Origin: Burkholderiales bacterium | Lineage (GTDB): Bacteria; Pseudomonadota; Gammaproteobacteria; Burkholderiales; SG8-39 | Assembly: GCA_023383795.1 (NCBI GenBank) | Contig: JAHDYJ010000004.1 | Coordinates: forward strand, 22,603 to 86,602 | Reading direction: 5' to 3' | Length of the DNA stretch: 64,000 bases | Part shown: positions 37,457 to 58,969 of the stretch, piece by piece | Position numbering within the stretch: position 1 is the stretch's first letter | Layout of the letters: every line of letters starts with the position of its first letter | Position numbers and translations under genes: made by a program | Notes under the pieces: generated by a model | Seen by the model: the letters and a program-made list of their open reading frames with translations, nothing else | Told to the model about the DNA's origin: nothing | Database searches by the model: none

Positions 37457-39175
37457 TCACCCGCGGGTGCGCGGCTTCTCGCCGACGAGGCGCATGTCGC
37501 GCGGCTCGCGCAGCTTGAACTGCGCCGGCTCCTGGCGGACATTGACCAGGCCGGCTTCGGCCATGATGGCGCCGAGGCTCTGCGGCGTGTAGTTCCAGCG
37601 GTGGCACATGAGCGGGTCGCGCCAGGCGGGATCCCCGTAGAAGACCCACATCGTGCGCTGGCCCTCCTGTCCGGGACCTGCGCCGGCCACCGGGTTCCTG
37701 AGGAGCTCCTCGCACGCGGCGAGCAGATTCGGGCACTCGAGGATCATCCGGCCGCCTGGCTTCAGCACCCGCGCCCACTCCCGCAGGACGTCGACGACCT
37801 CCCACCGCCAGAAGTGCTCGACCACGTGCACCGCGAGCACCTCGTCCGCGCTGTCGGACTCGAACGGCGTCAGAGCGTGCAGGTCGCACAGCACGTCGGG
37901 CGACTTCCCGGCGCGACTCGCCGCGACGTCCACGTTGACGTAGCCGGGAAGGATCTTGTCGCCGCAGCCGAGGTTGAGCCGCACGACCGCCTCTCCGCCG
38001 GCCGCCGCAGCGGCGTCGCTCGGCTCGCCGCTCCCCGCGAGCAGACGCTCCCATTCGGCGGCGATCCGCTCCGGCGAGAAGCGGGCGGCGACGCGCTCCT
38101 GGCCGGCGCGAATCCGCGCGACCGCCTCGTCGGGATGGTCGAGCGCCCACGCGACGCCCGCGCCGAGGTCGTCCCCGACCCACGCGTAGTCGGCGAGCTC
38201 GAGGTACGACGGGATCGGCGAGGCGATCGCGATGCGCCCGCCGCGGATCGCCTCGACCAGGCGGTTGTGCGACTTCACGCGCCCCCAGCGCTCGCCGTGC
38301 TCCTGCGGCAGGATGACGAGATCGCAATCGTCGATCGCGCGCCAGGTCGCCTCGGGCGACCACGGCACGAACCGGGTGGCGAGCGACGGGTGCGCGCGAA
38401 GCAGCAGCTCCGCGAGGGCGGCGGCGAGCTCCCGCCGCGTCTCGTGCGTCACGAGCAGGAGCTCGGCGGCGCGGCCGCGCAGCCCGCCGGCCGCGCGCGC
38501 GAGACCCCGCGCGACCGATTCGAGGTTGGCCGTGCCGAGCTGGCCGAACCAGCAGAGCCGGGCCGGATCGCCGCGCGGGCCGCGCGGCGGGCGCGCCTGC
38601 GGGCTCTCGTACGGGTCCTCGATGACGTGGATGCCGCGCTTCGCGTACGGCGCGAGCTCCGCCCTCAACGCCTCGCATGCGACGGTCAGCACGCAGAGCT
38701 CGCCGAGCGCCGCCTGATAGCGCCCGAGGAACGGCTGGCCGGTCGCCTCGCCGATCGCGGCGTAGTTGTCCGAGAGATCGGCCACGAGCCTGATCCGTCC
38801 GCGCGCCCGGGCCAGCCACGCGAGCAGCGCTTCGAAGCGCTCCGGCGCGGCGAGCAGGTCCGCGGTGGAGAACTTCGTCACGACGAGGGTCTCGACCGGC
38901 GCGACCGCATCGAGCGCCGTGTCCGTAGCGAGGAGCTCCGGCGGCACCAGGTACACGGGTCGCGACTCGGCGAGGTGCAGCGCCGGCACGAACGCACGCA
39001 GCCGCACGCTCGCGAGCTCCGAGTAGAGCTCGGCCCCGGGGTCCACCCGGACCGGCTCGTCCACGTTCACCACGTACGCGAGCGCGCCCGGCTCGCGGCC
39101 GGCGGCCGCGGCGGGCTGCGCCGCCGGGCGGGCGGATCCCCCCTTGAGCAGCTGGGAAACGAAGCTTCGGAGCAT
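37457..39175 (-). CDS. Fusion protein: GT-B-like glycosyltransferase-type domain + C-terminal class I SAM methyltransferase
   Basis: C-terminus: LNLGCGDKILPGYVNVD...LAVHVVEHF...VLKPGGRMILECP. The N-terminal ~390 aa is paralogous to the 49395-50513 product (LCWFGQ.., CDLVILP.., ARFSPERIAAEWERLL). Confidence 0.75.
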   Translation of the reverse strand: MLRSFVSQLLKGGSARPAAQPAAAAGREPGALAYVVNVDEPVRVDPGAELYSELASVRLRAFVPALHLAESRPVYLVPPELLATDTALDAVAPVETLVVTKFSTADLLAAPERFEALLAWLARARGRIRLVADLSDNYAAIGEATGQPFLGRYQAALGELCVLTVACEALRAELAPYAKRGIHVIEDPYESPQARPPRGPRGDPARLCWFGQLGTANLESVARGLARAAGGLRGRAAELLLVTHETRRELAAALAELLLRAHPSLATRFVPWSPEATWRAIDDCDLVILPQEHGERWGRVKSHNRLVEAIRGGRIAIASPIPSYLELADYAWVGDDLGAGVAWALDHPDEAVARIRAGQERVAARFSPERIAAEWERLLAGSGEPSDAAAAAGGEAVVRLNLGCGDKILPGYVNVDVAASRAGKSPDVLCDLHALTPFESDSADEVLAVHVVEHFWRWEVVDVLREWARVLKPGGRMILECPNLLAACEELLRNPVAGAGPGQEGQRTMWVFYGDPAWRDPLMCHRWNYTPQSLGAIMAEAGLVNVRQEPAQFKLREPRDMRLVGEKPRTRG

Positions 39176-39278
39176 CTATCCGGCAACGCGTAGAGTGCCG
39201 CCCGCGTGAGCGCCCGCGGCATGATCATCGGAACCGATGTCGCTCCCGATGCGGGTGGAACCGGTGGACGTCGCGGAA

Positions 39279-40175
39279 CTACCGCGGCGCATCGAGCAGC
39301 GCGGCGATCCGGCCCCAGTCGTTCGGGAACAGCGCGAGCTGCTCGGCCTTGCCCTCCGCGAGGACCCCGAAATCGACCGCGAGGTACTCCGCGATCAGCG
39401 CGTCCAGATGATCGCGGATGTAGGTCGACTCCGGGTCGAGGTTGCGCACCACCGCGAGCCCGGTCGGGGTCGCCCCGATCGTGTGCACCACGAGGTCGGG
39501 CCGGTGCTTGCGCAGCAGCAGAACCAGTCGCCAGATGTCGCCGCTCCAGAACTCGGTGGCCCGGTCGCGGGCGGCGGTGCGCTCGTCGAGCGGGTATACG
39601 TCGTGGATGAGGATCGTCGAGCCCGGCGTGCAGAGCGGCTCGATGTTCATGAAGTCGCGCAGCGCAAACTCGAAGTGGTGCATGCCGTCGATGAACGCGA
39701 GATCGACCGGGAGACCGCCGAGCTCGGCGCGCACGTCGTTCAGCGCGAAGAAGTCGTCGCTCGTCTGGGCGAAGATCTTCACGTTCGGCGGGAGCGCAAA
39801 GTTGATCTCGGGCGCGGGGTCGACGCCCAGGGCGCGCGTCTCCGGACCGACGAGCCGGATCGAGTCGCCCTTTGCAACGCCGATCTCGACGTAGGTGCGC
39901 GGCCGGAGATGCGCATGGATGCGCGCGATCACGCGGAAATAGTCCTCCCCGGGCATGCTGATCGCCGCGAGCAGGAAATGGGCGCGGGTGTAGTTGGGGT
40001 CGAGCTCGAGCGCCGCCCGGCAGCCCGCGATCGCCTCCGCGAAACGGCCCGCTTGGGCGTCAGCCAGCGCGGCCTGGTAATAGGCCACGCGCGCATCGGA
40101 CGGCGGCTGCGCCTCGGCCGCCGGGACGCGCGCCGAGCGCGACGGCAGGAAAACCCTCAGCAGGTTGCCAAGCAT
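39279..40175 (-). CDS. TPR-repeat + class I methyltransferase (Methyltransf_24/TylF-like) protein
   Basis: N-terminal TPR (YYQAALADAQAGRFAEAIAGCRAALELDPNY). C-terminal YVEIGVAKGDS...LAFIDGMHHFEF...ILIHDV. Confidence 0.75.
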   Translation of the reverse strand: MLGNLLRVFLPSRSARVPAAEAQPPSDARVAYYQAALADAQAGRFAEAIAGCRAALELDPNYTRAHFLLAAISMPGEDYFRVIARIHAHLRPRTYVEIGVAKGDSIRLVGPETRALGVDPAPEINFALPPNVKIFAQTSDDFFALNDVRAELGGLPVDLAFIDGMHHFEFALRDFMNIEPLCTPGSTILIHDVYPLDERTAARDRATEFWSGDIWRLVLLLRKHRPDLVVHTIGATPTGLAVVRNLDPESTYIRDHLDALIAEYLAVDFGVLAEGKAEQLALFPNDWGRIAALLDAPR

Positions 40176-40292
40176 CCGCGGATCTTAACCCCGGGCACGC
40201 GGTCGGCACAACGTTCCTCCCGCCGAAGCGTGAAAGGTTCCCTTAACAGCGCGCGACGCGCGCCGGATGTCCCTCCGCCCTCTGGCCGAGCC

Positions 40293-42233
40293 CTACCCGG
40301 CCGCGCGGACCACGCGCTCGATCCAGTCGGCCAGCGCCTCGACCGCCGCATCGGTCTCGAACAGTCGCGGGTGTGCGGCGCTGATCTTGGCGCGGTACGC
40401 GGCCCTGGCCGCCGGATCGCGGGCGAATGCGACCGCGAGCTCGACGAAGTGCTCCGGCGAGCGCGCGACACAGTCGGTGACGCCCGCCTGCCAGTACATG
40501 CCCGCCGTCATGCGGCCGCGGAAGAGCTCGCCGGGCAGCGTGACCAGCGGGACCCCGAGCGACATCACGACGTAGCTCGTCACGCCGCCCGAGAAGTGGA
40601 ACGTGTCGAGCACGCAATCGGCCGCGAGCAGAATGCTCAGGAACTCGGGCGTCGGCGCGAACGGCCGGAACGTGATGCGATCGGCGACGTCCGGCATGAC
40701 GCGCGCGAAGCGCGCCTCGAGCTGGCGCTGCCACACCGGGTGCGTCACGTCCGCGAACAGGACCACCTCGCCGTCCGGATCGCGGCGCAGAATGCCGGCG
40801 AGCGCGGCGTCGAAGTCCGGATGCATCTTCTGGAGCATCATCGGGCAGACGTAGTAGCGCACCTCGTCCAGCCAGCCGAGCGCCGCGCGCGAGAGCGGCT
40901 CGGCCGGAGGCACTGAGCGGGGGACGTAGACCGCGATTTTCGGCAACCGCACGAGCCGCTCGCTGTAGTGCGCCTGCGCGTGCTCGCCATCCTGGAACAC
41001 GTTGCTCAGGAAGTAGTCGATCGTGGGGATGCCCGACGTGCAGGGGTGGCCGATCAGCAGGGCCTGCACGGGCGCCAGACGGCTGAACGCCAGGAAGTAG
41101 AGGAAGGGGTGGAGGAAAAGGTCGGTGTAGATGAGGACGTCCGGCCGGCGCGCCTCGATGCACGGGCGCGCGGCCTCCAGCGTCTTTCCGAGGGGCACGA
41201 AAGCGCCGCGCTTCTCCGCGGCCGCCTTGAGTTCCGGATCCATAAAGCGATCGCCGTAGGCGAACAGGACCGTGTCGAACCGGTCCCGCTCGATCAGCAG
41301 GCGCACGAGGTTGCGATACCAGACGCCGACCGAGTGGCGACCCAGATAACCCGATACGATGCCGACGGTCGGCCTCTTCCCCGCCAGCGGCTCCCCGGCT
41401 GCGGCCTGTCGCGACGCATAGCGGAGCCCGGGCGACGCATAGCGGAGGCCGGGCGACGAGCGCAGCATGAGTTCGGCGACGCGCTCGTTCGTCGCGCGAT
41501 CGTTGTGCCCTTGGTACCCGAGGAAGAACGGCGTGTGATGGATCGCCGCCACCGGATCGGGAATCGAAGGCGGCTGCGCAAGCAGCCGGTCGAGCTCGCC
41601 CTCGAACCAGGCGCGCGCATCGGCAAGCGCGGCGCGCGACGCGCCGATCTGCGGCACCGTGTCGATCAGCCGGTTGACCTCGAGCGCGCCGCGCTCGGTC
41701 GCGGTTGCGAGCTCGAGCGCCCGGTCGAAGTAAGCGCGCGCCCCATCGATGTCGCCCAGACGGTATCCGACGAGCCCCAGCATCTCGAGCGGCGCTGCGG
41801 CGTGCGGCAACAGGCGGCGCGCGAGCTGCAGGCATGCCTCCGCCGGAATCGGTTCTTCTTCGTTGATATAGTGCACCCCGCGCGCGAAGAAGTGGAATCC
41901 GACGCCCCGCTCTATCGGACGCCCGGCATCCAACTGGCGCGCGGCGTCGAACGCCCCCTGCGCGGCGGCGTCGTCGCCGGCGCGCTCTAGAAACACGCCG
42001 TGCAGTGCGCTCGCCAGCGCGTCGTGCGGACGCCGGCGCCGCGCACGCTCCAACACCTCGGCGGCCCCCGCCGCATTCCGCGCGGCGTGAGCCTTGCGCA
42101 GGGCACCGACAAGCGCCGGATCGGCGTCCGGAGGCAGGTCGGCAAGCGGGACCAGCTCGACCGCTGGGGCGGAGCCGCCGGAAAAGGTGCGAAGCAATCT
42201 GAGCAGCATGGTGTCCGGGCGGGGAACGCCCAT
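40293..42233 (-). CDS. TPR + GT41 (SPINDLY/OGT-like) glycosyltransferase, paralogue 1 (alternative start 42209)
   Basis: TPR N-half. C-half has GT41-like blocks (VGIVSGYLGRHSVG, VLIYTDL, FSRLAPVQALLIGHPCTSG, LDTFHFSGGVTSY). The ATG at 42209 gives the island-typical N-terminus MLLRLLRTF. Confidence 0.8.
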   Translation of the reverse strand: MGVPRPDTMLLRLLRTFSGGSAPAVELVPLADLPPDADPALVGALRKAHAARNAAGAAEVLERARRRRPHDALASALHGVFLERAGDDAAAQGAFDAARQLDAGRPIERGVGFHFFARGVHYINEEEPIPAEACLQLARRLLPHAAAPLEMLGLVGYRLGDIDGARAYFDRALELATATERGALEVNRLIDTVPQIGASRAALADARAWFEGELDRLLAQPPSIPDPVAAIHHTPFFLGYQGHNDRATNERVAELMLRSSPGLRYASPGLRYASRQAAAGEPLAGKRPTVGIVSGYLGRHSVGVWYRNLVRLLIERDRFDTVLFAYGDRFMDPELKAAAEKRGAFVPLGKTLEAARPCIEARRPDVLIYTDLFLHPFLYFLAFSRLAPVQALLIGHPCTSGIPTIDYFLSNVFQDGEHAQAHYSERLVRLPKIAVYVPRSVPPAEPLSRAALGWLDEVRYYVCPMMLQKMHPDFDAALAGILRRDPDGEVVLFADVTHPVWQRQLEARFARVMPDVADRITFRPFAPTPEFLSILLAADCVLDTFHFSGGVTSYVVMSLGVPLVTLPGELFRGRMTAGMYWQAGVTDCVARSPEHFVELAVAFARDPAARAAYRAKISAAHPRLFETDAAVEALADWIERVVRAAG

Positions 42234-42418: not shown

Positions 42419-44518
42419 ATGCGTTCAGTAAGATCCCTGGCTCAACCGGCACGGAGACGAGGGCGCTGGCCGATGGGCTTGCTTGAGCGGGTTCGCCGCG
42501 CCCTTGAGCGCAGCGACGGGCAACCGGATCCAGCCCTGCTCGCGTACGTCGTCGCGCTCTACGAGAACGGGAGTATCGACGAGGCCGAAGCCGAATGCAC
42601 GCGCGTACTCGCCCGTCACCCGGGCAGCGCGCAGGCCCTGCACCTCCGCGGTCTCATCGCCGATCGGCGCGGCGACCGCCTGCGAGCGGAGCAGCTCATC
42701 GGATCGGCGGTCGCGGCGGCGCCCGGTGTCGGGCTCTACCGCTACAACCTCGGCAACGTGCAGCGCATGCTGGGCCGCGCCGACGCCGCGCTCGCCAGCT
42801 ATTCCCGGGCAGTGGAGCTCGAACCCGACCGCTTTGCCGCATGGTTCAATCTCGCGCAGTTGCATGCCGAGCAAGGCCGGCCGGCCCAGGCGATCGTCGC
42901 GTTCCGACAGGCGCGCCGGATCGATCCGGCGAGCGCCGAGGCCCGGTTGGGCCTCGCCGCGGCGCTCGTAGACGCTGCCCAGACCGGTGACGACGGGGCA
43001 TCCAGCTGTGCGGAAGCGCTCGCGCTGGTCGAGGGTTACTGGGCGCACGCCGCGGAGCCTTCGCGCGCACGCTTCGTTCTGGCGATGGCGCTGGCCGGCT
43101 GCGAGCGCTGGACCGAAGCCGCATCGCATCTCGAGGCGCTGGTTGCGGCGCATCCCGAGGCGGCCGAGTTGCGCAATCAGCTCGCCAACTGCTACAACCG
43201 CGTCGGCCGCGCGGCAGACGCCGTCGCGGAGTACCGCGAGACCTTCCGGCTCGCGCCCGATTTTCATCATGCGCTGACCGGCGTCCTCGGAACCCTGAAC
43301 GCCGTGGCCGAGGCGACCCCGGAGGAAGTGTTCGAGGCCCACCGCGCTTGGGCCGCCGCCGTTGCCGCACCGCTCTACCCGAGCGCGCCACGGTACCGGA
43401 ACACGCGCGATGCGCACCGCCGCCTGCGTATCGGCTATGTCTCGCCGGACCTGCGCCGCCATCCGGTCGGCGCGATGTTCGCGCCCGTGCTCGAACGCCA
43501 CGACCCCGCGCGCATGGAAACGTTCTGCTACTACAACTACCCGCGCGGGGACGTGATGACCGACCGCATGCGCCGCGCCGCGCATCACTGGCGCGACGTC
43601 TTCGGGCAGGACGACGCCGCCGTCGCAGAGGCGGTCCTGGCCGACGCGGTCGACATCCTGGTCGATCTCGTCGGACACACGCGGCACACCCGCCTCCCGG
43701 TCTTCGCGCGCAAGCCCGCGCCGGTCCAGGTCAGCTGGCTCGGGTACTTCAACACGACGGGGCTCGCGACGATGGACTATTTCGTCACCGACCCCGTCTC
43801 GTCTCCGCCGGGACAGGAGCGGTACTTCGTCGAGCGCCTGGTCCGTCTGCCCGCGACACGGTTCTGCTACGAGCCCCCCGAGTTCCTCCCTGCGGTGAGC
43901 GCGCTGCCGGCGCGCGCGCGCGGTCACATCACGTTCGGCTGCCTGAACAGTCTCGCCAAGCTGAACGACGGCGTGCTCGCGCTGTGGGCGCGGATTCTCG
44001 CCGCGGTCCCCGGCGCGCGCCTGTTGCTGCAGGCGTCCGCATTGAACGATCCGCTCGTGCAGCAGCGCTTGCGCGCGCGCGCCGAAGCGCACGGCATCGC
44101 CGCCGATCGGCTCGAGCTGCGCCGCTTCGTCCCCGTGGAGCAGGCGGGCCGCACGTACCACGACATCGACATCGCGCTCGATCCGTTCCCGTTCTGTGGC
44201 GGCATGACGAGCCTGGATGCCCTGTGGATGGGGGTGCCGGTGGTGACGCTGCCGCAGGCGATGATCGCCGGCCGTCAGACTGTGAGCATGCTCGCCAACC
44301 TCGATCTGCACGAGCTGGTCGCCGCGGACGCGGCGGCCTATGTGGCGATTGCCGTCGATCTCGCGCGCGATCTGGATCGCCTGGCAGCGCTGCGGGCGGG
44401 ACTGCGCGAGCGGTTCCGGCGCTCGCCCCTCGCCGACCACGACCGCTTCACCCGGGATCTCGAGGCTGCTTACGCCGGAATGTGGGCCGCATGGCTGGCG
44501 GCGCCACGCCAGGACTGA
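42419..44518 (+). CDS. TPR + GT41 (SPINDLY/OGT-like) glycosyltransferase, paralogue 2 (alternative start 42473)
   Basis: RIGYVSPDLRRHPVG, VDILVDLVGHT, FARKPAPVQVSWLGYFNTTG, FGCLNSLAKL and LDPFPFCGGMTS..LWMGVPVVT are canonical GT41 blocks following ~300 aa of TPR. Confidence 0.85.
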   Translation: MRSVRSLAQPARRRGRWPMGLLERVRRALERSDGQPDPALLAYVVALYENGSIDEAEAECTRVLARHPGSAQALHLRGLIADRRGDRLRAEQLIGSAVAAAPGVGLYRYNLGNVQRMLGRADAALASYSRAVELEPDRFAAWFNLAQLHAEQGRPAQAIVAFRQARRIDPASAEARLGLAAALVDAAQTGDDGASSCAEALALVEGYWAHAAEPSRARFVLAMALAGCERWTEAASHLEALVAAHPEAAELRNQLANCYNRVGRAADAVAEYRETFRLAPDFHHALTGVLGTLNAVAEATPEEVFEAHRAWAAAVAAPLYPSAPRYRNTRDAHRRLRIGYVSPDLRRHPVGAMFAPVLERHDPARMETFCYYNYPRGDVMTDRMRRAAHHWRDVFGQDDAAVAEAVLADAVDILVDLVGHTRHTRLPVFARKPAPVQVSWLGYFNTTGLATMDYFVTDPVSSPPGQERYFVERLVRLPATRFCYEPPEFLPAVSALPARARGHITFGCLNSLAKLNDGVLALWARILAAVPGARLLLQASALNDPLVQQRLRARAEAHGIAADRLELRRFVPVEQAGRTYHDIDIALDPFPFCGGMTSLDALWMGVPVVTLPQAMIAGRQTVSMLANLDLHELVAADAAAYVAIAVDLARDLDRLAALRAGLRERFRRSPLADHDRFTRDLEAAYAGMWAAWLAAPRQD

Positions 44519-44540: not shown

Positions 44541-45113
44541 TCAAGCCTCGGAAGACCGGGCGCGCAGCTTGGCCTCGAGATCGAGCAGCGCGCGCGAGCG
44601 CGCGCCAATGCGCCGGGCGGGAATGCCGGCGTATAGCGTGAACGGCTCGAGCGATTTCTTCACCAGCGAGAGCGCGCCCACGGCGGCGCCCTCACCGATC
44701 GTGACCCCGGGCAGCACGACCGTTCCGGTCCCGATGACGACGTGGCGACCGATCCTCACCGGCGCGTCGGTCACCCGCCGGTACTCCAGCGGCACGGTCG
44801 GGTTGGTCATTCCCGCGCCGCTGAAGTCGTCCGTGCTCGAATAGACGGCGACGCGGCCCGACAGGTTGCTGAAGTCCTCGAGCTCGATGCGGGCCTTGCC
44901 GATCAGCGTGCACTGGCATGCGACATGCACGTAGCTGCCGATGCTTATCCCCCCTTCGCCTGCGGACAGCACGCAGAAATCGTCGATGCGCACGCGGTCG
45001 CCGAGCGCGATGCGCGGCGCACCGTGGATCGACGCCTTGTCGCTGACGAGCACGTCGGCGCCGATGTCCGCGAAGCCCAGTCTGCGCAACGCCTGACGGC
45101 TCAGGAACGCCAT
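44541..45113 (-). CDS. Hexapeptide-repeat (left-handed beta-helix) acetyltransferase
   Basis: 190 aa. Repeated [LIV]G-x4 hexapeptides (IGRHVVIGTGTVVLPGVTIGEGAAVGA). Overlaps the end of the aminotransferase gene by 13 nt. Confidence 0.85.
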   Translation of the reverse strand: MAFLSRQALRRLGFADIGADVLVSDKASIHGAPRIALGDRVRIDDFCVLSAGEGGISIGSYVHVACQCTLIGKARIELEDFSNLSGRVAVYSSTDDFSGAGMTNPTVPLEYRRVTDAPVRIGRHVVIGTGTVVLPGVTIGEGAAVGALSLVKKSLEPFTLYAGIPARRIGARSRALLDLEAKLRARSSEA

Positions 45114-49327: not shown

Positions 49328-49394
49328 CCTCCCGGTGCGGGAGCGTCCGCCCGGCTTGCGCGCGACGCGCATCGGTCGGCGGCTCGGAGAGGAC

Positions 49395-52166: not shown

Positions 52167-53806
52167 CACCGCGAAGCGGGCTCTGCGCCCGCGGCGCGCG
52201 CGCAGGCTTCTCGCCACACGCTGCGGTAAGCGGCTTCGAGATTGCGCATGAAGCGCGGCGCGTCGAGCAACGGCGACGCACGGAGCCGGTCGCGCATTCC
52301 GTGCTGCAACGCGCGCAGGCGTGGTCGATCGAAAGCAAGCGTCGCGGCGATCTCCAGGTACTGCTCGTCGTTCTCGGCCACGAACTCGCGCATGCCGACG
52401 GCTTCCAGGATCGAGGCGCCCGAGCGCGCGAAGCCCATTGCGCCCGCCCTGGTCACGACGGGCACCCCGAGCCACAGGCACTCGCAAGTCGTCGCGCCGC
52501 CGTTGTACGGGAAGGTGTCGAGTGCGATGTCCGCGCGGCGAATCAAGTCCCAGTACGGCTGCGGCGGCAGCCGGCCCCAGGTCCGGATCCGCTCCGCGGC
52601 CACGCCGGCGACGGCGAGGGCGGCGACGAGCCGTTCATGGCTCTCGTCGCTCGGGACGTCGGCGAACCAGAGCTCGGAGTCGGGTACGCGCGCGAGCAGG
52701 CGCCCCCACAACCGCAGCATGTCCGGCTGCACCTTGGCGAGGCGGTTGAAGGAGCCGAATACGATCGGCGCCCCTGCATCGCCGCCGCGCGGCGCCGGCG
52801 CGGGCATCGCGCCGCGCGGACTGAAGCACCATTGCGTTTCCGGCAGGCGGACGAGCCGCTCGCTGTACCACCGGTCCGTATCGCCCGGCGGGTCGGCGCG
52901 GGCGTCGGTGACCCGGTAGTCGATGGCATCGATCCCGGTCGTCGCGAGATAACCGAGGTAGCTCATCTGCACCGGCGCCGGCTTTCTCGCGATCACGTGC
53001 ACGCGGTTGCCGTCGGTCAGGCCCGCGAGGTCCACCAGGATGTCGATCTCGTCCGCCTGGATCAGGGCGGCGAGTTCCTCGTCGGACAGTTTCGCCACGG
53101 AGTGCCAGCGGTCGGCAGCCGCGCGCAGTTCCGCCGTCCGCTCGTCTTCATCGTCGACGGTGTGGTAGCAGAACGCCGCGAACGCGTCCCGGTCCCGTGC
53201 AGCGAGGAGCGGCTCGATGAAGTAGGCGACCGCGTGCGCGCGGAAATCGCCCGAGAGGTAGCCGATGCGGAGCCGTCGCTCGGGGTCGGCCAGGCGCTCG
53301 GCTCCGATCGGCAGCCGCCGAGCGCCGCTCAGCACGCGCTCCATGCACGCGCGGTGTTCGGCCAGCAGCTGCTCGGGCGCCGTTTCGGCCTGCTGGCTCA
53401 GATGGAACAGGAGGGAGGTGTTGAACCGCAGCCCTCGCGGGTCGAGCGCAAGGGCCTTGCGGTAGGCCGCCTCGGCCTCTCGATTTCGCCCAAGCGCCTG
53501 CAGCGCCATCCCGAGGTTGCGGTGGAAGTCCGCTACGGGCAGGTCCCCGCGCAGCGCCTCGCGGAAGTAGTCGAGCGCGGTGTCGTAATGCATGCGCCCG
53601 TAGGCGAGGAGGCCGAGCAGGTTGAGCGCGTCCGGGTTGCGGGGCTCGAGCCTGAGCGCCTCGAGAAAGCACCGCTCTGCCTCCGCGCTGCGCTTTGCCC
53701 GCGCGTGCTCGACGCCCGCTTCCAGGGCAGCACGCACGTCCGCTGCGAGCGCTGCCGGATCGCGCCGCCGCGCGCCCAGCAGGCCGGCGACGAGGCCCTT
53801 CAGCAT
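52166..53806 (-). CDS. TPR + GT41 (SPINDLY/OGT-like) glycosyltransferase, paralogue 5
   Basis: MLKGLVAGLLGARRR... Colinear with paralogue 4, with well over half of positions identical by eye. Its stop overlaps the paralogue 4 start (TGATG). Confidence 0.85.
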   Translation of the reverse strand: MLKGLVAGLLGARRRDPAALAADVRAALEAGVEHARAKRSAEAERCFLEALRLEPRNPDALNLLGLLAYGRMHYDTALDYFREALRGDLPVADFHRNLGMALQALGRNREAEAAYRKALALDPRGLRFNTSLLFHLSQQAETAPEQLLAEHRACMERVLSGARRLPIGAERLADPERRLRIGYLSGDFRAHAVAYFIEPLLAARDRDAFAAFCYHTVDDEDERTAELRAAADRWHSVAKLSDEELAALIQADEIDILVDLAGLTDGNRVHVIARKPAPVQMSYLGYLATTGIDAIDYRVTDARADPPGDTDRWYSERLVRLPETQWCFSPRGAMPAPAPRGGDAGAPIVFGSFNRLAKVQPDMLRLWGRLLARVPDSELWFADVPSDESHERLVAALAVAGVAAERIRTWGRLPPQPYWDLIRRADIALDTFPYNGGATTCECLWLGVPVVTRAGAMGFARSGASILEAVGMREFVAENDEQYLEIAATLAFDRPRLRALQHGMRDRLRASPLLDAPRFMRNLEAAYRSVWREACARAAGAEPASR

Positions 53807-53860: not shown

Positions 53861-53895
53861 ACAAAAAGAAACAGGCCCCTCCGCGGAGGGGCCTG
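53861..53895 (-). terminator. Intrinsic terminator of pilA
   Basis: Perfect 24-nt palindrome CAGGCCCCTCCGCGGAGGGGCCTG (53872-53895). On the minus-strand RNA it is followed by UUUCUUUUUGU. Lies 24 nt after the pilA stop. Confidence 0.8.
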
Positions 53896-53918
53896 CCGTC
53901 CGACTGCTGCTGCCGTGA

Positions 53919-54332
53919 TTACCGGCAGGAACCCGGCATGTAGCGCGACGGGGTGCCCGTGCAGCTCCAGGTCAGCGTGCCCGCCGACGTGTTCACGGTG
54001 GGCGTCAGCACCACAGTGACGGCGGTGCCGACGCTCGTCGGCGCGCTGGAGCCCGTAATCGTGACCACGCCGGTGTTGGCGACGGTCGCGCCCAGGATCT
54101 TGCCGAAGGCGACGATCGACGTTCCGCTGCCCATGTTGGCCGAGTCCTGGTCGGCCTGGTACTTCTCGGTGATCGCCGTGCGCGCAGCGCTCGCCGCCAG
54201 GATCAGCTCCGAGACCTTCGAGCGGATCGTGTAGTCCTGATACGCCGGCAGCGCGATCGCCGCCAGGATGCCGATGATCGCGACCACGATCATCAGCTCG
54301 ATCAGGGTGAAACCCTTTTGAATTGCCTTCAT
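53919..54332 (-). CDS. pilA: Type IVa major pilin
   Basis: Class III leader [35 protein letters not shown]-terminal disulfide loop [20 protein letters not shown] Shine-Dalgarno sequence. Confidence 0.95.
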
Positions 54333-54386
54333 TCACTTCTCCTCTACGGTTGATTGCGAGAACTCTGACCCGCCGACCCCGTAGGA

Positions 54387-54401
54387 GCAAGCTGTATGCC
54401 A
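54387..54401 (-). promoter_or_regulatory. Sigma54 (-24/-12) promoter of pilA
   Basis: The minus strand reads TGGCAT-acagc-TTGC, about 55 nt upstream of the pilA ATG. An AT-rich tract (54424-54458) further upstream is a plausible IHF/activator region. Confidence 0.65.
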
Positions 54402-54574: not shown

Positions 54575-56389
54575 TCAGATGCGTCTGGCAGCCGCCCGGA
54601 CGAGCGCGGTCCAGTCGCCTCCCGCCGTCTGGCGCAGCAGCTCGACCGACGGGTACCACGGCATGCGGTCGCCTGCGCGCAGGTAGCGCCACTCGGGCGC
54701 CGCCGGTACCAGCGCGATCACTCGGGCGCCAAGCGCCCCCCCTAGATGGACGACGGAGCTGCACACGGTCACCACGGCGTCCAGTGCGCCGATCAATGCG
54801 GCAGTCTCCTCCGGATGCGACGCTGCCTCCGGCCAGTGCGCGACGGGCTTGCCGGCGACGGCCTGCAATCGCGCGAGCTCCTCGCCGGTGGCGCGATGTT
54901 GCAGGCTCACGAACGCGAGGTCGGTGCGACCGACGAGCGGCGCGAGATCCTCGGGAGAGAGCGAGCGCGTTCGCTGGCGCGTGCGCATCAGTCCGCCGCG
55001 CCAGGCGATACCGATCTTGCGCCCCGATCCCAGCGTGGCGAGGCGGGACCGATACTCGTGCACGCGCGCCGGATCGGCCGCGAGATAGCTGCGGCGCGCG
55101 GGAAAGTCCGCGGCGCCGCGCCGGTAGCGGCGCGGCAGGCTGCCGGCGGCAATCTGGACGTCGATCGCGCCGGCACCCGCGAGCCAGGCGTGGTCCCAGG
55201 TCCGCGGCGCGCCGCAGACCGCGGCGGTCGGAAAGGCGCGCCGGAAGAGGCTCTCGAGCCGGGGGTCGCACTCGACCACGACGGCGCGCGCCTCGGCGAT
55301 CAGGTCCGGCAGGCAGCTCGCAAACATGATCTCGTCGCCGAGTCCTTGCTCCGCATAGACCAGCACGGTCTTGCCGGCCGCCGGCTCGGCGCCGAGCTCC
55401 GGTTGCGGAAACCCGCGCCGCGGCGACTCGCCCGAATCGAACCGACCCTCGTAATCTTCCCACCCGCCGGCGAAATCGCCGAGCGCGAGCCGCAGCAGCG
55501 CCCGGCCCAGACGGGCATCGCCGGATCCCGGCGCGAGCGCGAGCGCCGCGTCGTACTCGGCACGCGCGCCGGAGGTATCGCCGAGATCCGCGAGCGCCGC
55601 GGCGAGCGCGCTGCGCGCGGCGACCTCCGCAGGGCGCTGTGCGACGAGCGCCGCCACCGCATCACGCGCCTCTGCGGCCATGCCGAGCTCACGCAGCACG
55701 ATCGCGCGGTGGGTCAGCGTCGTCGCATCGCCGGGCGCCAGCGCCATCGCCCGGTCGAGCTCGCGCAGCGCGTCGGCGTGCCGATCGAGCCCGCGCAGGC
55801 ACATCGCCAGGCGATTGAGCGGCTCCGCCCGCTCCGCTTCGAGCGCCGCCGCGCGGGCAAAATGCGTCGCGGCCTCGTCGAGCCGTCCCAGCTCCTGCAG
55901 TGCGATGCCAGAGTTCAAGTGTGCCGCAGCGTGGTCAGGATCACGCTTGAGAACCCACCGCAGCACATCGATCGCCTCCTGCGGGCGGCCGAGCTCGGCG
56001 AGCGCGCCGGCGAGCTCGCTGCGCGCCGGAAGGCTCGCCGGGTTGATCTCGATCGCCCGGCACAGCGCGTGCGAGGCCTCCAGCGCGGCGCCGCGGCGGC
56101 GCAGCGCCTGGCCGAGCAGCTCGTGCGCGTGCGCGTCGTCCGGCCGCGCCTGCAGCATCTCGCGCATCAGCGCCTCGGCGCCCGCATTGTCGCCGCGCTC
56201 GAGGCAGATTTCGGCGAGGAGGTAGCCCGCGGCCGGACGCTCCGGCGCGGCCCGCATCACGTGCCGCGCGAGTTCTGCCGCGCGATCGAGATCGCCTCTT
56301 CCGCGCGCCGCGGCCGCAGCGTCGAGCAGCCGGTCGGTCTCGCTCGGCCGCGCGCGGCCGGCGAGCCGCGAGATCAGGACGCGCAGCAT
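54575..56389 (-). CDS. TPR + GT9 (heptosyltransferase-family) glycosyltransferase, paralogue 1
   Basis: ~330 aa of TPR, then GKTVLVYAEQGLGDEIMFASCLP...VTVCSSVVHLGGALG, typical of the GT9 family. Confidence 0.8.
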   Translation of the reverse strand: MLRVLISRLAGRARPSETDRLLDAAAAARGRGDLDRAAELARHVMRAAPERPAAGYLLAEICLERGDNAGAEALMREMLQARPDDAHAHELLGQALRRRGAALEASHALCRAIEINPASLPARSELAGALAELGRPQEAIDVLRWVLKRDPDHAAAHLNSGIALQELGRLDEAATHFARAAALEAERAEPLNRLAMCLRGLDRHADALRELDRAMALAPGDATTLTHRAIVLRELGMAAEARDAVAALVAQRPAEVAARSALAAALADLGDTSGARAEYDAALALAPGSGDARLGRALLRLALGDFAGGWEDYEGRFDSGESPRRGFPQPELGAEPAAGKTVLVYAEQGLGDEIMFASCLPDLIAEARAVVVECDPRLESLFRRAFPTAAVCGAPRTWDHAWLAGAGAIDVQIAAGSLPRRYRRGAADFPARRSYLAADPARVHEYRSRLATLGSGRKIGIAWRGGLMRTRQRTRSLSPEDLAPLVGRTDLAFVSLQHRATGEELARLQAVAGKPVAHWPEAASHPEETAALIGALDAVVTVCSSVVHLGGALGARVIALVPAAPEWRYLRAGDRMPWYPSVELLRQTAGGDWTALVRAAARRI

Positions 56390-56437
56390 TCGGCGCCGTG
56401 CGAGCGCGCCGCGGCTCGCGGCCGGCGATCGGGTTCC

Positions 56438-57121
56438 CTACGCCGGCGCACGCTGGGTGCACGCAAGCATGCGCTCGAGCTCCTGCCGCCACTCCTCGGC
56501 GTACTCGCAGTCGCGGTACTCCTGGAAGTAAGGCCCGCCGAGCGTGTAGTGTACGAGCGAGACGTCGCGGCTCGGGGCGTAGTAGCCGACCAGGTGGTTC
56601 CAGCGCCGCGGCAGCTCGCCGATCAGGCTCTCGCTTTTCAGCCACTTGAACTGGTGCAGCTCGAGTCCGGACGCGCGGTTGACGTACTCCGGCGTGAGCG
56701 CGGTGCAGCGCGAGTTGTTGAACAGCATCACGCTCGACCAGTTCTTCTTGGGGTACTGGGTCTGCGGCTGGTCGAGGAACTTGATCGTCTCGCGCGGCTG
56801 GTGGTCGTGCTTCACCACCATGACCGCGTACCGGTCGTCGCGCAGCCGCCACAGGTTCGCGATGTCGTCCAGGACCAGCATGTCGCAGTCGGTGAAGATG
56901 CTCCATCCCTCGTAGCCCGACAGGTGCGGGACGAGGAAACGCGTGAAGGCGAAATCGGTCGACTGCAGCGGGTGGCGCTCGCGCGAGAAGACGCCGCGCA
57001 GCGCGGAGAGCACGAGCGGCGTAATGCTGACCGGCTCGCTCGCGCGCACGTGCATGCTGTGCGCGAGGACGCTGAATGCCACTGCCTCGCGCGGATCGTA
57101 TCCGATGAAAACGTTGATCAT
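56438..57121 (-). CDS. GT8-like nucleotide-sugar glycosyltransferase
   Basis: 227 aa. MINVFIGYDPRE...TRFLVP...IFTDCDMLVLDDI (DxD) is a GT-A fold. The family assignment is from motif memory only. Confidence 0.65.
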   Translation of the reverse strand: MINVFIGYDPREAVAFSVLAHSMHVRASEPVSITPLVLSALRGVFSRERHPLQSTDFAFTRFLVPHLSGYEGWSIFTDCDMLVLDDIANLWRLRDDRYAVMVVKHDHQPRETIKFLDQPQTQYPKKNWSSVMLFNNSRCTALTPEYVNRASGLELHQFKWLKSESLIGELPRRWNHLVGYYAPSRDVSLVHYTLGGPYFQEYRDCEYAEEWRQELERMLACTQRAPA

Positions 57122-57213
57122 GCGGTGTCCCGGTGCAGTGGCACGATAATATCAAGCCGCCCGCGCATCGCGCACGCGCGGCCGCCGGCGCACGTGCCTT
57201 TTTGCCGCATGTG

Positions 57214-58851
57214 CTAACCCCGGTGCCCGCTGCGGAGCGCAGCGAGCTCGCGCCGCACCGCGTCGACGACCGGGCTCCAGTCCGCGCTCGCGGCCTGGCG
57301 CAGCAGGCGCACGGACGGATACCACGGCATGCGCTCGCCCGCCGCGCCGTAGCGCCACTCCGGCGCGCGCGGCGTCATCACCCACACCGGACGCCCGAGG
57401 GCGCCGCCGAGGTGGACGATCGCGGTGCAGACCGAGACGATGCCGTCGAGCGCGGTCGCCAGCGCGGCGGTCTCGTCGTAGTCGTCGATGGCCTCGGGCC
57501 AGTGATGCATGCGGATTCCGCTGGCCGACGCGAATCCCGCGGCCTCGGCGGCGGCCTCGGGCCCGTACTGCAGGCTCACGAAATGGAACCCGAGCTCGCG
57601 CAGCAGTGGCTCGAGCACCCCGAGCGTGAGCGAGCGGCGCTCGGTGCGCGTGCGTGCGGTCCCACCGCGCCACGAGACGCCGATGGCGCGGCCCGGACCG
57701 AGTGCGGCCAGGCGCTCGCGCCAGCGGCCGACCTTTGCCGGATCGGCGCGCAGGTAGCCCTGGTGCGCCGGGAACGCCGTCGGCGCATTGCGGAGGTAGA
57801 GCGGCAAGCTCCCGGCCGGCACCTGCACGTCGATGCCGAGCGGCAGTGTCCAATCGACCGGATCGGCCTGGTGTCCGGCATGCACCGTCGCGGGCGGGAA
57901 CGAGCGGACGAAGAGCGGCGCGAGCTTCGGAGAGCAGTCGATCACGCAGTGCCGCGCCGCACCGACGATCTCCGGCAGGCAGGATGCAAAGAGGATCTCG
58001 TCGCCGATGCCCTGCTCGGCGTGCACGAGGATGGTCTTGCCGGCGAGGGGCTCGCCGTTCCAGCGCGGAAACGGAAACGCCCGCTGCGGACGGTCCTCGG
58101 AGCGCAGCCGCAGCTCGTAGTCCGGCCACGCCTCGGCGAAGCGGCCGGCGGTGAGCAGCGCGATCGCGCGGTGGAAGCACGCGCCGACGTGCTGCGGGTC
58201 GCGCGAGCGCGCGGCATCGTAGGCGGCGAGAGCGTCCTCGAGCCGCCCGAGCTCCTGCAGCGCGGCGCCGTAAGCCGTGAGCGTGTCGGGATCGCGCTCG
58301 CCGAGCGACACCGCGCGCTCGAGGGCGGCGAGCGCCGGCGCCGCATCGAACGCGCCGCGCATGTGAAGCCGGCCGAGCGCCGCGAGCGCGACCGCGTGAT
58401 CCGGGAAGCGCTCGACGACCGAGCGCAGCAGCGCGATGTCCTCGTGGGGCACGGCGTCGTCCGGCAGCCAGTCGACGAGCCCCCGGATCGCCGCCGACGA
58501 GCTCGGATCGGCGCGCACCGCGCGCCGGAAGCACTCGAGCGCGGAGGGTCGATCGTCCCGTCGCGCGTGCAGCAAGCCGAGGTTCGCCAGCGCCGAGGCG
58601 TGGTCCGGTGCCAGCGCGATCGCCGCGGCGTAGCTGCGTTCGGCCGCCGATTCCTCGCCGAGCAGGACGAGGACGTTCCCGAGATCGGAGTGCGTGTCGG
58701 CCGAATCCGGCGCGAGCGCGAGCGCGCGCTCGAGCAGCGCCCGCGCCCGCGGCGCGTCTCCGCCGCCCGCCGCGCGCCATGCGCCCTCCCGCAGCGCGCG
58801 GGGGTCCTCGGCGCCACGGGGTCGCACGCGCTTCAGCAGGTCGCGCAGCAC
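57214..58851 (-). CDS. TPR + GT9 (heptosyltransferase-family) glycosyltransferase, paralogue 2 (track ORF extends to 58929)
   Basis: GKTILVHAEQGIGDEILFASCLP...VSVCTAIVHLGGALG. The GTG at 58851 (GGGGGA upstream) gives the N-terminus (M)LRDLLKRVRPRG, matching the island motif. Confidence 0.8.
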   Translation of the reverse strand: MLRDLLKRVRPRGAEDPRALREGAWRAAGGGDAPRARALLERALALAPDSADTHSDLGNVLVLLGEESAAERSYAAAIALAPDHASALANLGLLHARRDDRPSALECFRRAVRADPSSSAAIRGLVDWLPDDAVPHEDIALLRSVVERFPDHAVALAALGRLHMRGAFDAAPALAALERAVSLGERDPDTLTAYGAALQELGRLEDALAAYDAARSRDPQHVGACFHRAIALLTAGRFAEAWPDYELRLRSEDRPQRAFPFPRWNGEPLAGKTILVHAEQGIGDEILFASCLPEIVGAARHCVIDCSPKLAPLFVRSFPPATVHAGHQADPVDWTLPLGIDVQVPAGSLPLYLRNAPTAFPAHQGYLRADPAKVGRWRERLAALGPGRAIGVSWRGGTARTRTERRSLTLGVLEPLLRELGFHFVSLQYGPEAAAEAAGFASASGIRMHHWPEAIDDYDETAALATALDGIVSVCTAIVHLGGALGRPVWVMTPRAPEWRYGAAGERMPWYPSVRLLRQAASADWSPVVDAVRRELAALRSGHRG

Positions 58852-58969
58852 GGCGTCCCCCGGCGGTGGCGAAGCGGAGTCCGTGTGATTTTGCCCACGC
58901 AGGTCGCGGCCCGCGCCGCTCGCCGGCACCGGCCGATGCTAGAATCCGCTTGATGATGGGAGGCTAAGT

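Follow-up and report, generated by a model that had tools for sequence, protein, structure and literature searches.

Cytoplasmic glycosyltransferases of the BAHT (TibC, AAH) and HMW1C/NGT groups modify their proteins before Sec-dependent export, evidence that a chain already carrying sugars can still be translocated. Pilins can also be glycosylated by a PglL-dependent route, as in Burkholderia. The same dependence is described for Neisseria (PMC7591256), and in Ralstonia, a glycosyltransferase gene adjoins the pilin gene (PMC9306852). In Caulobacter crescentus, FlmG consists of a TPR domain (residues 1-313 of 596) followed by a GT-B domain, the former binding the substrate and the latter setting donor specificity (PMC7591256, bioRxiv 10.1101/2022.03.25.485807). 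The cyanobacterial TPR-GT41 enzyme Ogt, which has no signal peptide, is needed for PilA glycosylation and its gene adjoins pilA in 38% of 201 genomes (PMC9306852). Given this precedent for direct pilin glycosylation, the best reading of the locus described here is a FlmG/OGT-like pilin-modification system working without an oligosaccharyltransferase, with the pilin as putative substrate of direct transfer, a reading to which we give a probability of roughly one half. The idea as such has thus already been published for Ogt and PilA (PMC9306852); the main new comparative result is a pilin-linked arrangement of TPR-GT9-like genes that is conserved across species.

The locus was analyzed within the window, i.e., the whole stretch of 64,000 nucleotides, in which genes were called by GC3 because the G+C content is ~72%. 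On these calls, positions 37457-58929 are filled by 15 genes, with a longest unassigned gap of ~310 bp. The sequence-only reading had counted 17 consecutive genes for modifying enzymes; there are 14, plus the pilin gene, which is indeed the only non-enzyme gene of the block. A Pfam search recovered the families that had been proposed for the five GT41 genes and for the GT2-like, methyltransferase, DegT, and hexapeptide (Hexapep) genes. TPR domains, a typical feature of transferases that act on proteins, occur in nearly all enzymes of the battery. None of the enzymes in the block has a signal peptide, the transferases are predicted to be soluble, and the TPR enzymes have in common a basic amphipathic N-terminal peptide, consistent with membrane association.

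The pilin gene (53919..54332, minus strand) encodes a type IVa prepilin of 137 aa, with the leader MKAIQKG followed by FTLIELM and a C-terminal disulfide loop in the mature protein (Cys117-Cys129). Its identification is borne out by matches to PF00114 and PF07963 and by Neisseria PilE as the nearest solved relative (E = 3.5e-20), and a 100% identical protein, annotated as "pilin," is present in a Burkholderiales MAG. The gene is, as had been stated, co-directional with its minus-strand neighbors. A Ser/Thr content of about one third in the C-terminal half had also been pointed out; the count is right (24 of the last 70 residues, 34%), but it is ordinary for the group, since related pilins average 27%. 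Just past the stop codon, a strong intrinsic-terminator-like hairpin (53870..53897, minus strand) has a 12-pair stem with 8 G-C pairs followed by a T run, TCTTTTTGTG, and ~54 nt upstream of the start codon, a sigma-54-type promoter match, TGGCATacagcTTGCT, is located at 54386..54401 (minus strand). A strict sigma-54 motif occurs at the same distance upstream of 16/70 related pilins, with an expectation of 0.003 per 260 nt. As the pilin has its own predicted promoter and terminator, its linkage to the enzymes in one transcript is only putative.

Directly upstream of the pilin gene, GT9a (54575..56389, minus strand; 604 aa) has ~8 TPR repeats reaching to about residue 295, followed by a GT9-like GT-B domain, an architecture like that of FlmG. 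A second TPR enzyme of this kind, GT9b (57214..58851, minus strand), shares 51% identity with GT9a in the catalytic domain, always adjoins the gene of a 115-aa protein (sm115), and has positional orthologues in loci L001-L016. Both had been called GT9-like; no sequence model in Pfam, NCBIfam, or PDB matched either catalytic domain, but the predicted structure does resemble GT9 heptosyltransferases. For the AlphaFold2 model (pLDDT 90.8), the best Foldseek matches are GT9 structures, with 3tov first (E = 6e-8, TM 0.61) and WaaF and WaaC next, and a further match, at TM ~0.5, is TibC, a heptosyltransferase that acts on protein. Over its full length, GT9a aligns with both modules, TPR and GT, of an Azospirillum protein (33-34% identity, E = 9e-64 and 2e-61). 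The gene of that protein immediately follows flagellin and flbT, with pseI nearby, a setting that matches the genomic context described for FlmG. Homologues were also seen on a Burkholderia plasmid and a Ralstonia megaplasmid, in uninformative contexts. Between the two GT9-like genes, 56438..57121 (minus strand) encodes a small GT8-like (GT-A, D-x-D) glycosyltransferase, a label that was only partly upheld: the PF01501 score is below the cut-off (21.6 versus 24.3 bits), and a PDB sequence search gave no match, but the stretch matched by PF01501 contains the D-x-D motif.

The five genes that had been read as TPR-GT41 enzymes all score above the PF13844 cut-off of 25 bits. GT41a (40293..42233, minus strand) is the most divergent, at 60 bits, and is matched by the NCBIfam N-glycosyltransferase (NGT) model (E = 2e-13); its true start is likely 42209 (MLLRLLRTF), its orthologues having 615-630 aa. 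GT41b (42419..44518, plus strand; 188 bits and many TPR matches) likely starts at 42473 (MGLLERV), giving 681 aa, the length also found in its orthologues. GT41c (46222..47880), GT41d (50553..52166), and GT41e (52166..53806), all on the minus strand, score 182, 186, and 182 bits, respectively, the last being directly downstream of the pilin gene. The top PDB matches of GT41e are SPINDLY (E = 4.9e-94), a protein O-fucosyltransferase, and Thermobaculum OGT (E = 6.5e-91), and its FNxLxK motif keeps the active-site Lys, with the Lys of FNRLAK aligned to that of FNQLYK in human OGT. To our knowledge, every characterized GT41 enzyme has a protein acceptor.

Among the remaining enzymes, 37457..39175 (minus strand) encodes a fusion in which a GT-B-like domain (residues ~1-380) precedes a SAM methyltransferase (~416-479) and which opens with the shared N-terminal peptide, here MLRSFVSQLL; in Pfam, Methyltransf_11 matches with 42.7 bits and Glyco_trans_1_2 very weakly (E = 0.009). 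The N-terminal half of the fusion has a paralogue (31% identity, E = 2e-24, BLASTP) in 49335..50513 (plus strand), a GT-B-like protein without family assignment that gave no match in the Pfam and NCBIfam scans. The TPR-methyltransferase at 39279..40175 (minus strand; Methyltransf_24, PF13578, 44.7 bits; one TPR, E ~1e-4), the TPR-GT2-like enzyme at 48194..49327 (plus strand; Glyco_tranf_2_5, PF13712, 83 bits), the DegT-type sugar aminotransferase at 45101..46261 (minus strand; PF01041, 231 bits), and the hexapeptide-repeat sugar acetyltransferase at 44541..45119 (minus strand; PF00132, 40 bits) agree with what the sequence-only reading had proposed. For the last two, the closest NCBIfam models, both under the respective cut-offs, are the DesI-type dTDP-4-keto-6-deoxyglucose aminotransferase (168 bits) for the DegT protein and the NeuD/PglB/VioB family for the acetyltransferase.

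Three further genes adjoin the block. The first one, sm115 (58970..59317, plus strand), is divergent from the GT9-like genes and encodes an all-helical protein with no Pfam or NCBIfam match; it has 280 homologues, with 63-100% identity among the 120 listed, and its AF2 model (pLDDT 84) gave no match in Foldseek. The second (59337..61040, minus strand) encodes a GAF and HD-GYP protein of 567 aa, a length shared by its orthologues (PF13487, 151 bits; GAF, 60 bits), and is predicted to be a c-di-GMP phosphodiesterase. The third (61049..63406, minus strand; 785 aa) encodes a GAF-MshEN-T2SSE ATPase (PF00437, 385 bits, plus MshEN and GAF) resembling PilB or MshE; its assignment as a canonical PilB was rejected (TIGR02538, 479 bits versus a cut-off of 676).

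In order to follow the arrangement across species, 76 loci were fetched from species-representative genomes via the GT9-like domain alone. In 44 of them there is a closely related pilin, of the same subfamily, whose median distance to the nearest TPR-GT9-like gene is 170 bp; of the 32 pilin-less loci, 17 are truncated where the contig ends. The sequence-only reading had asked whether such clusters in relatives lie beside a pilin gene, and in these 44 loci, the last GT9-like gene is followed by 1-3 pilin genes, in most cases with the same orientation. The conserved module consists of the GAF-MshEN PilB-like ATPase, the HD-GYP gene, the divergent 115-aa gene (in 47/76 loci), 1-6 TPR-GT9-like genes per locus, often with a GT8-like gene (45/76, the commonest companion), and the pilin gene or genes. 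Its core order is kept in Betaproteobacteria and Methylococcaceae and persists down to 42-55% identity of the GT9-like domain. The linkage to the pilin gene is conserved for the TPR-GT9-like and GT8-like genes, but GT41 genes occur in only 24/76 loci and are, like the DegT and methyltransferase genes, variable add-ons. In relatives with 71-96% pilin identity, the pilin gene is located between TPR-GT9-like and TPR-GT41 genes and the accessory content differs; the close relatives L004, L007, and L009 carry, e.g., Glyco_transf_61, TylF, sulfatase, and IS elements in the battery. The carriers identified in species-representative genomes and in metagenomes are, without exception, MAGs of uncultured organisms. 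The presence of a pilin within such batteries in dozens of uncultured proteobacteria suggests, at the level of sequence, that soluble FlmG-like enzymes may glycosylate a pilus subunit.

Direct transfer faces a topology problem, as the globular domain of type IV pilins is on the periplasmic side, prepilins are inserted co-translationally, and the enzymes have no signal peptide. Moreover, GT9 and GT8 are families classically known from LPS-core synthesis, where the acceptors are lipid-linked, and together with the fold match to GT9 and the amphipathic peptide, this would fit membrane work on a lipid carrier. The enzymes might build an undecaprenyl-phosphate-linked glycan at the cytoplasmic face of the inner membrane, which would be flipped and moved en bloc to the periplasmic pilin by a PglL/TfpO-type oligosaccharyltransferase encoded elsewhere, the TPR domains holding the enzymes together as a complex instead of binding the pilin. 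Such a route, known for pilins in Neisseria (PMC7591256), would remove the topology problem, and in 4/76 loci, a PglL-type gene (PglL_A + Wzy_C + Wzy_C_2) is found inside the module, directly upstream of the pilin in L039 and L080 and adjoining the 115-aa gene in L051 and L054. The earlier exclusion of the lipid-linked route was too strong in view of these four loci and of a genome covered here only by the window, but the lack of its genes in the window stands: Wzy_C/PglL, flippase, and phosphoglycosyltransferase domains were found neither in the region nor in the scanned or read called genes of the window (the pathway-gene scan left out the short upstream ORFs 2-280, 13014-13400, 29350-29805, 32414-32956, and 33702-34016), and the region has no transmembrane glycosyltransferase, flippase, initiating transferase, or oligosaccharyltransferase. 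An oligosaccharyltransferase, a flippase, and an initiating phosphoglycosyltransferase are also absent from 72 of the 76 related loci. In addition, we know of no GT41 enzyme with a lipid-linked acceptor nor of TPR arrays of such length on glycan-assembly transferases, and the full-length homologue with flagellin, flbT, and pseI as neighbors speaks for direct glycosylation of a protein, since flagellin never meets the periplasm. We regard a lipid-linked route as the main rival reading, though a rather unlikely one.

Less probable still is that the TPR enzymes glycosylate another protein, such as a flagellin encoded elsewhere, an adhesin, or a cytoplasmic component of the pilus machine, e.g., the neighboring ATPase or the 115-aa protein, with the pilin gene merely a conserved neighbor. 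The genes for the 115-aa protein, the ATPase, and the HD-GYP protein reach about the same degree of conservation in the module as the pilin gene, the GT9-like homologues of cultured bacteria are not beside pilins (one adjoins the Azospirillum flagellin), and bacterial OGT homologues are reported to be able to modify numerous cytoplasmic proteins (PMC11329713). However, this would leave aside the 1-3 pilins that so closely follow the last GT9-like gene in 44/76 loci, no flagellin motif was found in the 87 sequences scanned (86 loci and the window), and in the cyanobacterial precedent, such adjacency does go with glycosylation of the pilin. That the pilin locus is only a hot spot of variable sugar genes for polysaccharide or LPS, as variable sugar-metabolism genes gather beside pilA in Pseudomonas aeruginosa, is very improbable, for although battery content varies greatly among close relatives and the pilin has its own predicted transcription unit, the core order is kept from Betaproteobacteria to Methylococcaceae, polysaccharide polymerase or export genes are absent, the G+C of the region is uniform without sign of a recently acquired island, and nearly every enzyme carries the TPR domain.

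Under the FlmG/OGT-like reading, we infer soluble enzymes that are probably tethered to the membrane, whose TPR domain would recognize the acceptor and whose catalytic domain would transfer the sugar directly. Still facing the cytoplasm, the prepilin would receive the sugars at Ser/Thr, either ahead of its Sec/SRP-dependent insertion or in the course of it. The two TPR-GT9-like enzymes, as the conserved core with FlmG architecture, would place the first sugars, and the GT8-like enzyme would extend them; the five TPR-GT41 enzymes together with the GT2-like and GT-B-like ones may serve glycan extension or further sites. An N-acetylated amino-deoxy sugar could come from the DegT protein and the acetyltransferase acting as a pair, and the methyltransferases could decorate the glycan. 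With a GAF-MshEN ATPase and an HD-GYP protein encoded alongside, c-di-GMP may gate the assembly of the pilin.

The system would share with PglL/PilO/TfpO and TfpW (Neisseria, Pseudomonas, Acinetobacter, Ralstonia) a type IVa major pilin as target, glycosylation genes often located beside pilA, and, in four related loci, a PglL-type gene; those enzymes are polytopic membrane proteins that act in the periplasm with a lipid-linked donor, whereas the window encodes predicted soluble transferases and no such enzyme, flippase, or initiating transferase. The BAHT and NGT enzymes resemble it through the TibC match to the GT9-like model and the NGT match to GT41a; however, both are without TPR (NGT has an all-alpha domain instead), and their substrates are adhesins, not pilins. 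FlmG, compared by its described architecture, has the same order of N-terminal TPR and C-terminal GT-B as GT9a, both are soluble without a signal peptide, direct sugar transfer by FlmG needs no oligosaccharyltransferase, and the GT9a homologue in Azospirillum has flagellar neighbors. In contrast to FlmG, the locus has no nonulosonic-acid (Pse/Leg) pathway, the structural neighbor is a type IV pilin and not flagellin, the substrate would cross the membrane via Sec after modification, and there are 1-6 paralogues per locus plus GT8-like and GT41 partners. With Ogt/OgtA and PilA of Synechococcus elongatus and Nostoc punctiforme, the locus shares a TPR-GT41 gene beside a pilin gene and the same question of topology. 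It differs in that a single GlcNAc-adding enzyme is found there and five accessory GT41 paralogues here, in its hosts of another phylum, in a GT9-like family as the conserved partner, and in the dedicated ATPase and HD-GYP module attached to it.

The genes of the window were called by third-position G+C (GC3) and the translations were then checked, raw ORF lists containing many spurious frames at ~72% G+C. The calls place 15 genes in the locus (37457-58929), namely, 14 enzymes and one type IVa pilin (53919-54332, minus strand), and thus the 17 consecutive enzyme genes counted in a sequence-only reading of this DNA were too many. An ORF antisense to the pilin (53953-54234, plus strand) was discarded as a high-G+C artefact, with the Pfam matches lying in the pilin frame; its third-position G+C is 0.96 versus 0.92 for the pilin, so calls by GC3 alone are not always reliable in this genome. 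The uniform G+C across the region led us to reject a recently acquired island. Positions 1-37438 are a dense sulfur-oxidation and carbon-fixation neighborhood, with an Hdr-like complex, a sulfite-oxidase-type molybdoenzyme, FccAB flavocytochrome c (17893-19511), AprAB with Sat, SoxXA, SoxB, and CbbQ/O; also present in this stretch are genes for a sigma-54 activator (10957-12315) and for a large PAS histidine kinase (13375-16791). Given these sulfur-oxidation genes and a 100% identical protein annotated as "pilin" in a Burkholderiales MAG (homologue database), the host is taken to be an uncultured sulfur-oxidizing betaproteobacterium. An exact-sequence look-up of the pilin returned no record.

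Its sequence features identify the pilin as a true type IVa prepilin, as had been proposed. It matches PF07963 (39 bits) and PF00114 (48 bits), a short leader ending in Gly followed by FTLIELM with Glu5 can be read, and its closest solved relative is Neisseria PilE (E = 3.5e-20). Cys117 and Cys129 of the mature protein, which delimit the C-terminal disulfide loop, are conserved in 96-100% of 70 relatives. The gene is served by a promoter match of its own, of the sigma-54 type (TGGCATacagcTTGCT), and by a strong terminator. Of 70 related pilins, 16 have a strict motif of this type at the same distance upstream, where 0.003 would be expected. The Ser/Thr content of the C-terminal half, estimated earlier at about one third, was counted at 34%; since related pilins average 27%, this is ordinary for the group and was not retained as evidence for glycosylation.

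The same layout recurs on contigs whose pilins are 96%, 93%, 90%, 78%, 72%, and 71% identical. It runs from a GAF-MshEN-T2SSE ATPase and a GAF-HD-GYP protein through a divergent ~115-aa gene to TPR-GT9-like genes with a ~230-aa GT8-like gene, then the pilin, and then TPR-GT41 genes and other sugar enzymes. Accessory content varies among relatives (Glyco_transf_61, TylF, sulfatase, IS elements), while the core is constant. As an independent test, GTDB representative genomes, one for each species, were searched with the GT9-like domain alone. Relatives are encoded in more than 585 stretches; 76 loci were kept for annotation with HMMs built from the window proteins. These come mostly from Betaproteobacteria/Burkholderiales MAGs, with some from Methylococcus and Methylocaldum. 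A pilin of the same subfamily is present in 44 of the 76, often in two or three tandem copies, and in 17 loci it is absent with a contig end within 1.5 kb. The 115-aa gene was found in 47 loci, the GT8-like gene in 45, and a GT41 gene in 24, with one to six GT9-like genes per locus. Given that the GT9-like gene nearest to the pilin lies at a median of 170 bp, and that GT41 genes are found in only 24 loci, the TPR-GT9-like family is the one most tightly linked to the pilin. The neighborhood check suggested by the sequence-only reading thus upholds its association of the enzyme battery with a pilin, and the conserved synteny lends its interpretation partial support, but the GT41 enzymes that it emphasized are accessory.

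Five loci (L030, L046, L050, L064, and L070) carry a different pilin subtype (…AIPAYQDYIARSQVSEA…). In all five, the GT9-like gene and the pilins are separated by an ORF of ~1,000 aa with 8-10 hydrophobic segments (L030, 11007-14054; L046, 9919-12942; L050, 10987-14061; L064, 9649-12630; L070, 3923-6967). The one from L030, the only one scanned, has an additional spermidine-synthase-like domain. L030 also encodes a PAP2-family membrane protein, and L064 a protein with seven hydrophobic segments and C-terminal TPR repeats.

The catalytic domains of the two TPR-GT9-like proteins of the window, encoded directly upstream of the pilin (GT9a, 54575-56389, minus strand) and further upstream (GT9b, 57214-58851, minus strand), have no Pfam (including PF01075) or NCBIfam match at E <= 0.01. 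Against PDB sequences, both a single sequence and a 14-sequence profile retrieved only WaaF, at E = 0.34. A few homologues have a precomputed PF01075 match, and some are named "glycosyltransferase family 9 protein" by NCBI. An AlphaFold2 model (pLDDT 90.8) gave 3tov as the best Foldseek match (E = 6e-8, TM 0.61), followed by WaaF and WaaC, and the top nine matches are all GT9 structures (3tov, 1psw, 2h1h, 2gt1, 6dfe; E = 6e-8 to 8e-5, TM 0.5-0.6). The protein heptosyltransferase TibC is also matched, with a TM of ~0.5. Aligned homologues share an invariant EQGxGDE motif, which may resemble the G-D motif of WaaC, with its catalytic Asp. The domain is invisible to sequence models but closest to GT9 structures, and therefore the GT9 label given earlier is kept at the level of the fold and not of family membership.

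This family is very large, with 44,495 clusters at 50% identity matching the domain profile, 26,071 of them at E <= 1e-30, and most members are publicly annotated as "tetratricopeptide repeat protein". It includes giant proteins of 1,000-3,140 aa with two to six tandem copies of the domain (P0361-P0510). Among annotated plasmids and chromids, the family is frequent in those of Azospirillum, Ralstonia, Burkholderia, and relatives. In a locus of the Azospirillum ramasamyi plasmid NZ_CP029830.1 (locus positions 3754-16942), flagellin and flbT are directly followed by a protein of 1,409 aa that consists of two TPR-GT9-like modules in tandem, each aligning with the whole of GT9a (33-34% identity, E = 9e-64 and 2e-61). 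The arrangement resembles an island for flagellin glycosylation that uses the GT9-like family. Acyl-carrier and AMP-binding genes and pseI lie upstream, pseI being a few genes from the 1,409-aa protein. The plasmid contexts of the Burkholderia thailandensis and B. ambifaria homologues were uninformative. A Ralstonia solanacearum copy at the edge of a fliG-K cluster was rejected as a flagellar link, as it is flanked by diguanylate cyclases and has no flagellin within 49 kb.

The five TPR-GT41 genes recognized earlier were borne out. The proteins encoded at 40293-42233, 42419-44518, 46222-47880, 50553-52166, and 52166-53806 all pass Glyco_transf_41 (PF13844), with 60, 188, 182, 186, and 182 bits, respectively (cut-off 25), and TPR families were matched in all five, weakly (E ~1e-3) in the first. 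The last of them matches Arabidopsis SPINDLY (7y4i) at E = 4.9e-94 over residues 39-536 and the Thermobaculum OGT at E = 6.5e-91. The Lys in its FNRLAK (FNxLxK) aligns to the one in FNQLYK of human OGT, which we take to be the nucleotide-binding K842, and an N-x-x-x-K motif is readable in the other four as well. Pfam also matched a TPR-Glyco_tranf_2_5 gene, a TPR-Methyltransf_24 gene, DegT, and a hexapeptide acetyltransferase in the locus; for the DegT and acetyltransferase pair, the nearest NCBIfam models are of the DesI and VioB types. The fusion protein (37457-39175, minus strand) has a Methyltransf_11 domain, and its N-terminal half is paralogous to the 49335-50513 protein, to which neither Pfam nor NCBIfam assigned a family. 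The GT8-like protein (56438-57121, minus strand) reaches 21.6 bits on Glyco_transf_8 (cut-off 24.3) over a stretch spanning the D-x-D motif FTDCDMLVLDD, with no match among PDB sequences.

All 10 TPR-bearing or fusion enzymes, with catalytic domains from five families, begin with M-L-x-x-L-L-x-x-L followed by basic, Arg-rich residues. On the minus strand, these are the genes ending at 39175, 40175, ~42209, 47880, 52166, 53806, 56389, and 58851, and on the plus strand those starting at ~42473 and 48194. The mean helical hydrophobic moment of the peptide is 0.54, versus 0.29 for other N-termini in the window (p = 1.7e-4), and GT41 and GT9-like genes elsewhere among the loci carry the peptide too. 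It is too short and too charged for a Sec or Tat signal, and may serve as a docking helix, with the membrane or another protein as its partner.

The 115-aa gene (58970-59317, plus strand) is usually divergent from the first GT9-like gene and has 280 homologues, 63-100% identical among the 120 matches listed. The protein has no Pfam or NCBIfam family, and its confident all-helical model has no structural neighbor in the PDB; the best structural matches, to globins (E = 0.15, TM 0.3), were taken as chance. Beyond it are encoded a PilB-like ATPase with N-terminal GAF and c-di-GMP-binding MshEN domains (61049-63406, minus strand; 479 bits on the PilB model, cut-off 676) and, following it, a predicted GAF-HD-GYP phosphodiesterase (59337-61040, minus strand). 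No PilC, PilD, or PilMNOPQ genes were found near this pair. The domain content suggests c-di-GMP control of pilus assembly. Upstream of the ATPase, a protein with cNMP-binding and rhodanese domains is encoded.

In agreement with the sequence-only reading, neither the region nor the called window genes that were scanned or read (those other than five short upstream ORFs) yielded an oligosaccharyltransferase (Wzy_C/PglL_A), a flippase, or an initiating transferase, and ORFs with at least six transmembrane or hydrophobic segments are absent from the window. Scanning the related loci for membrane proteins identified PglL-type genes (PglL_A, Wzy_C, and Wzy_C_2) inside the module in four of the 76 loci, from four species, either directly upstream of the pilin (L039, 7463-10111; L080, 3174-4997) or beside the 115-aa gene (L051, 4776-6815, and L054, 3289-5406, both minus strand). 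These four embedded genes, together with an N-terminal helix whose membrane binding would suit lipid-linked glycan assembly, favor an alternative in which the enzymes of the locus build a lipid-linked glycan and an oligosaccharyltransferase encoded elsewhere transfers it. We consider this main alternative less likely, given that an oligosaccharyltransferase is missing from 72 of the 76 loci and from the window, that the flagellin-adjacent Azospirillum homologue implies direct transfer, and that GT41 enzymes are, to our knowledge, protein transferases only. The reading we prefer, with a probability of about 0.5, is that TPR-guided enzymes glycosylate the prepilin directly and on the cytoplasmic side. 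The topology objection to it is, in our analysis, real but not decisive; HMW1C/NGT and the TibC/AAH heptosyltransferases modify proteins ahead of Sec export.

Under direct glycosylation, the GT9-like enzymes would be the conserved initiators, and the GT8-like, GT41, GT2-like, and GT-B-like enzymes would extend the glycan or modify other sites. DegT and the acetyltransferase could supply an N-acetylated amino-deoxy sugar, and the methyltransferases could decorate the glycan. Genes for nucleotide-sugar synthesis are missing from the core module, which suggests housekeeping donors (e.g., ADP-heptose or UDP-hexoses). More tentatively, and with the odds somewhat against the proposal in its entirety, many Betaproteobacteria and Methylococcaceae would possess an unrecognized, oligosaccharyltransferase-free pilin glycosylation, in which a pilin-dedicated branch of the FlmG-resembling TPR-GT9-like family acts on prepilin at the cytoplasmic membrane face before translocation, in a multi-enzyme line with GT8-like and GT41 partners, recruitment through the N-terminal peptide, and coupling to pilus assembly by a dedicated c-di-GMP-gated PilB-like ATPase. 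The initial observation is partly confirmed, with its domains and pilin borne out and its gene count and GT9 family assignment corrected.

The standard view places the glycosylation of Gram-negative pilins in the periplasm, where it depends on an oligosaccharyltransferase such as PglL or TfpO, or on a GT-C enzyme such as TfpW; the one exception in the literature searched is a cyanobacterial OGT homologue. If our reading is true, pilins of many environmental proteobacteria, including sulfur oxidizers and methanotrophs, would share the FlmG-type direct mechanism, and the long-standing question of topology, i.e., cytoplasmic glycosylation of an SRP/Sec-inserted protein, would become testable. A very large family, annotated only for its repeats, would thereby gain its first functional context, and tandem paralogues with separable acceptor and donor domains might be of use in glyco-engineering. 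If the lipid-linked route is instead the right one, the locus would keep its interest as a line for glycan assembly that is dedicated to a pilin and, unusually, built from TPR-fused enzymes.

Among the known systems, FlmG (596 aa) acts in the cytoplasm, where it modifies flagellin directly; binding of flagellin falls to the TPR domain, and donor specificity to the GT-B domain (PMC7591256). GT9a has the soluble two-domain architecture described for FlmG, with an N-terminal TPR and a C-terminal GT-B domain, and its Azospirillum homologue sits in an FlmG-like setting, beside flagellin, flbT, and pseI. Unlike in the FlmG class, the flagellin motif is absent from all 87 sequences scanned (86 loci and the window), and no Pse/Leg synthase was found among the window genes scanned with Pfam and NCBIfam. 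The cyanobacterial TPR-GT41 Ogt, which has no secretion signal and poses the same topology puzzle, adjoins pilin genes in 38% of 201 genomes, and both normal piliation and the modification of PilA with GlcNAc depend on it through its catalytic Lys (Suban et al., PMC9306852); similar findings for Nostoc OgtA are cited there. Our literature search on TPR, GT9, or heptosyltransferase proteins with pilin found only this cyanobacterial Ogt work, and none on proteobacteria or the GT9-like family. Given the Ogt-PilA precedent, the concept of direct pilin glycosylation is already known, as is, with FlmG and flagellin, the direct TPR-guided glycosylation of a surface filament subunit. What is new is the large, conserved, multi-paralogue, pilin-centered locus in Betaproteobacteria and Methylococcaceae, its essentially unannotated enzyme family, and the attached ATPase, HD-GYP protein, and 115-aa gene.
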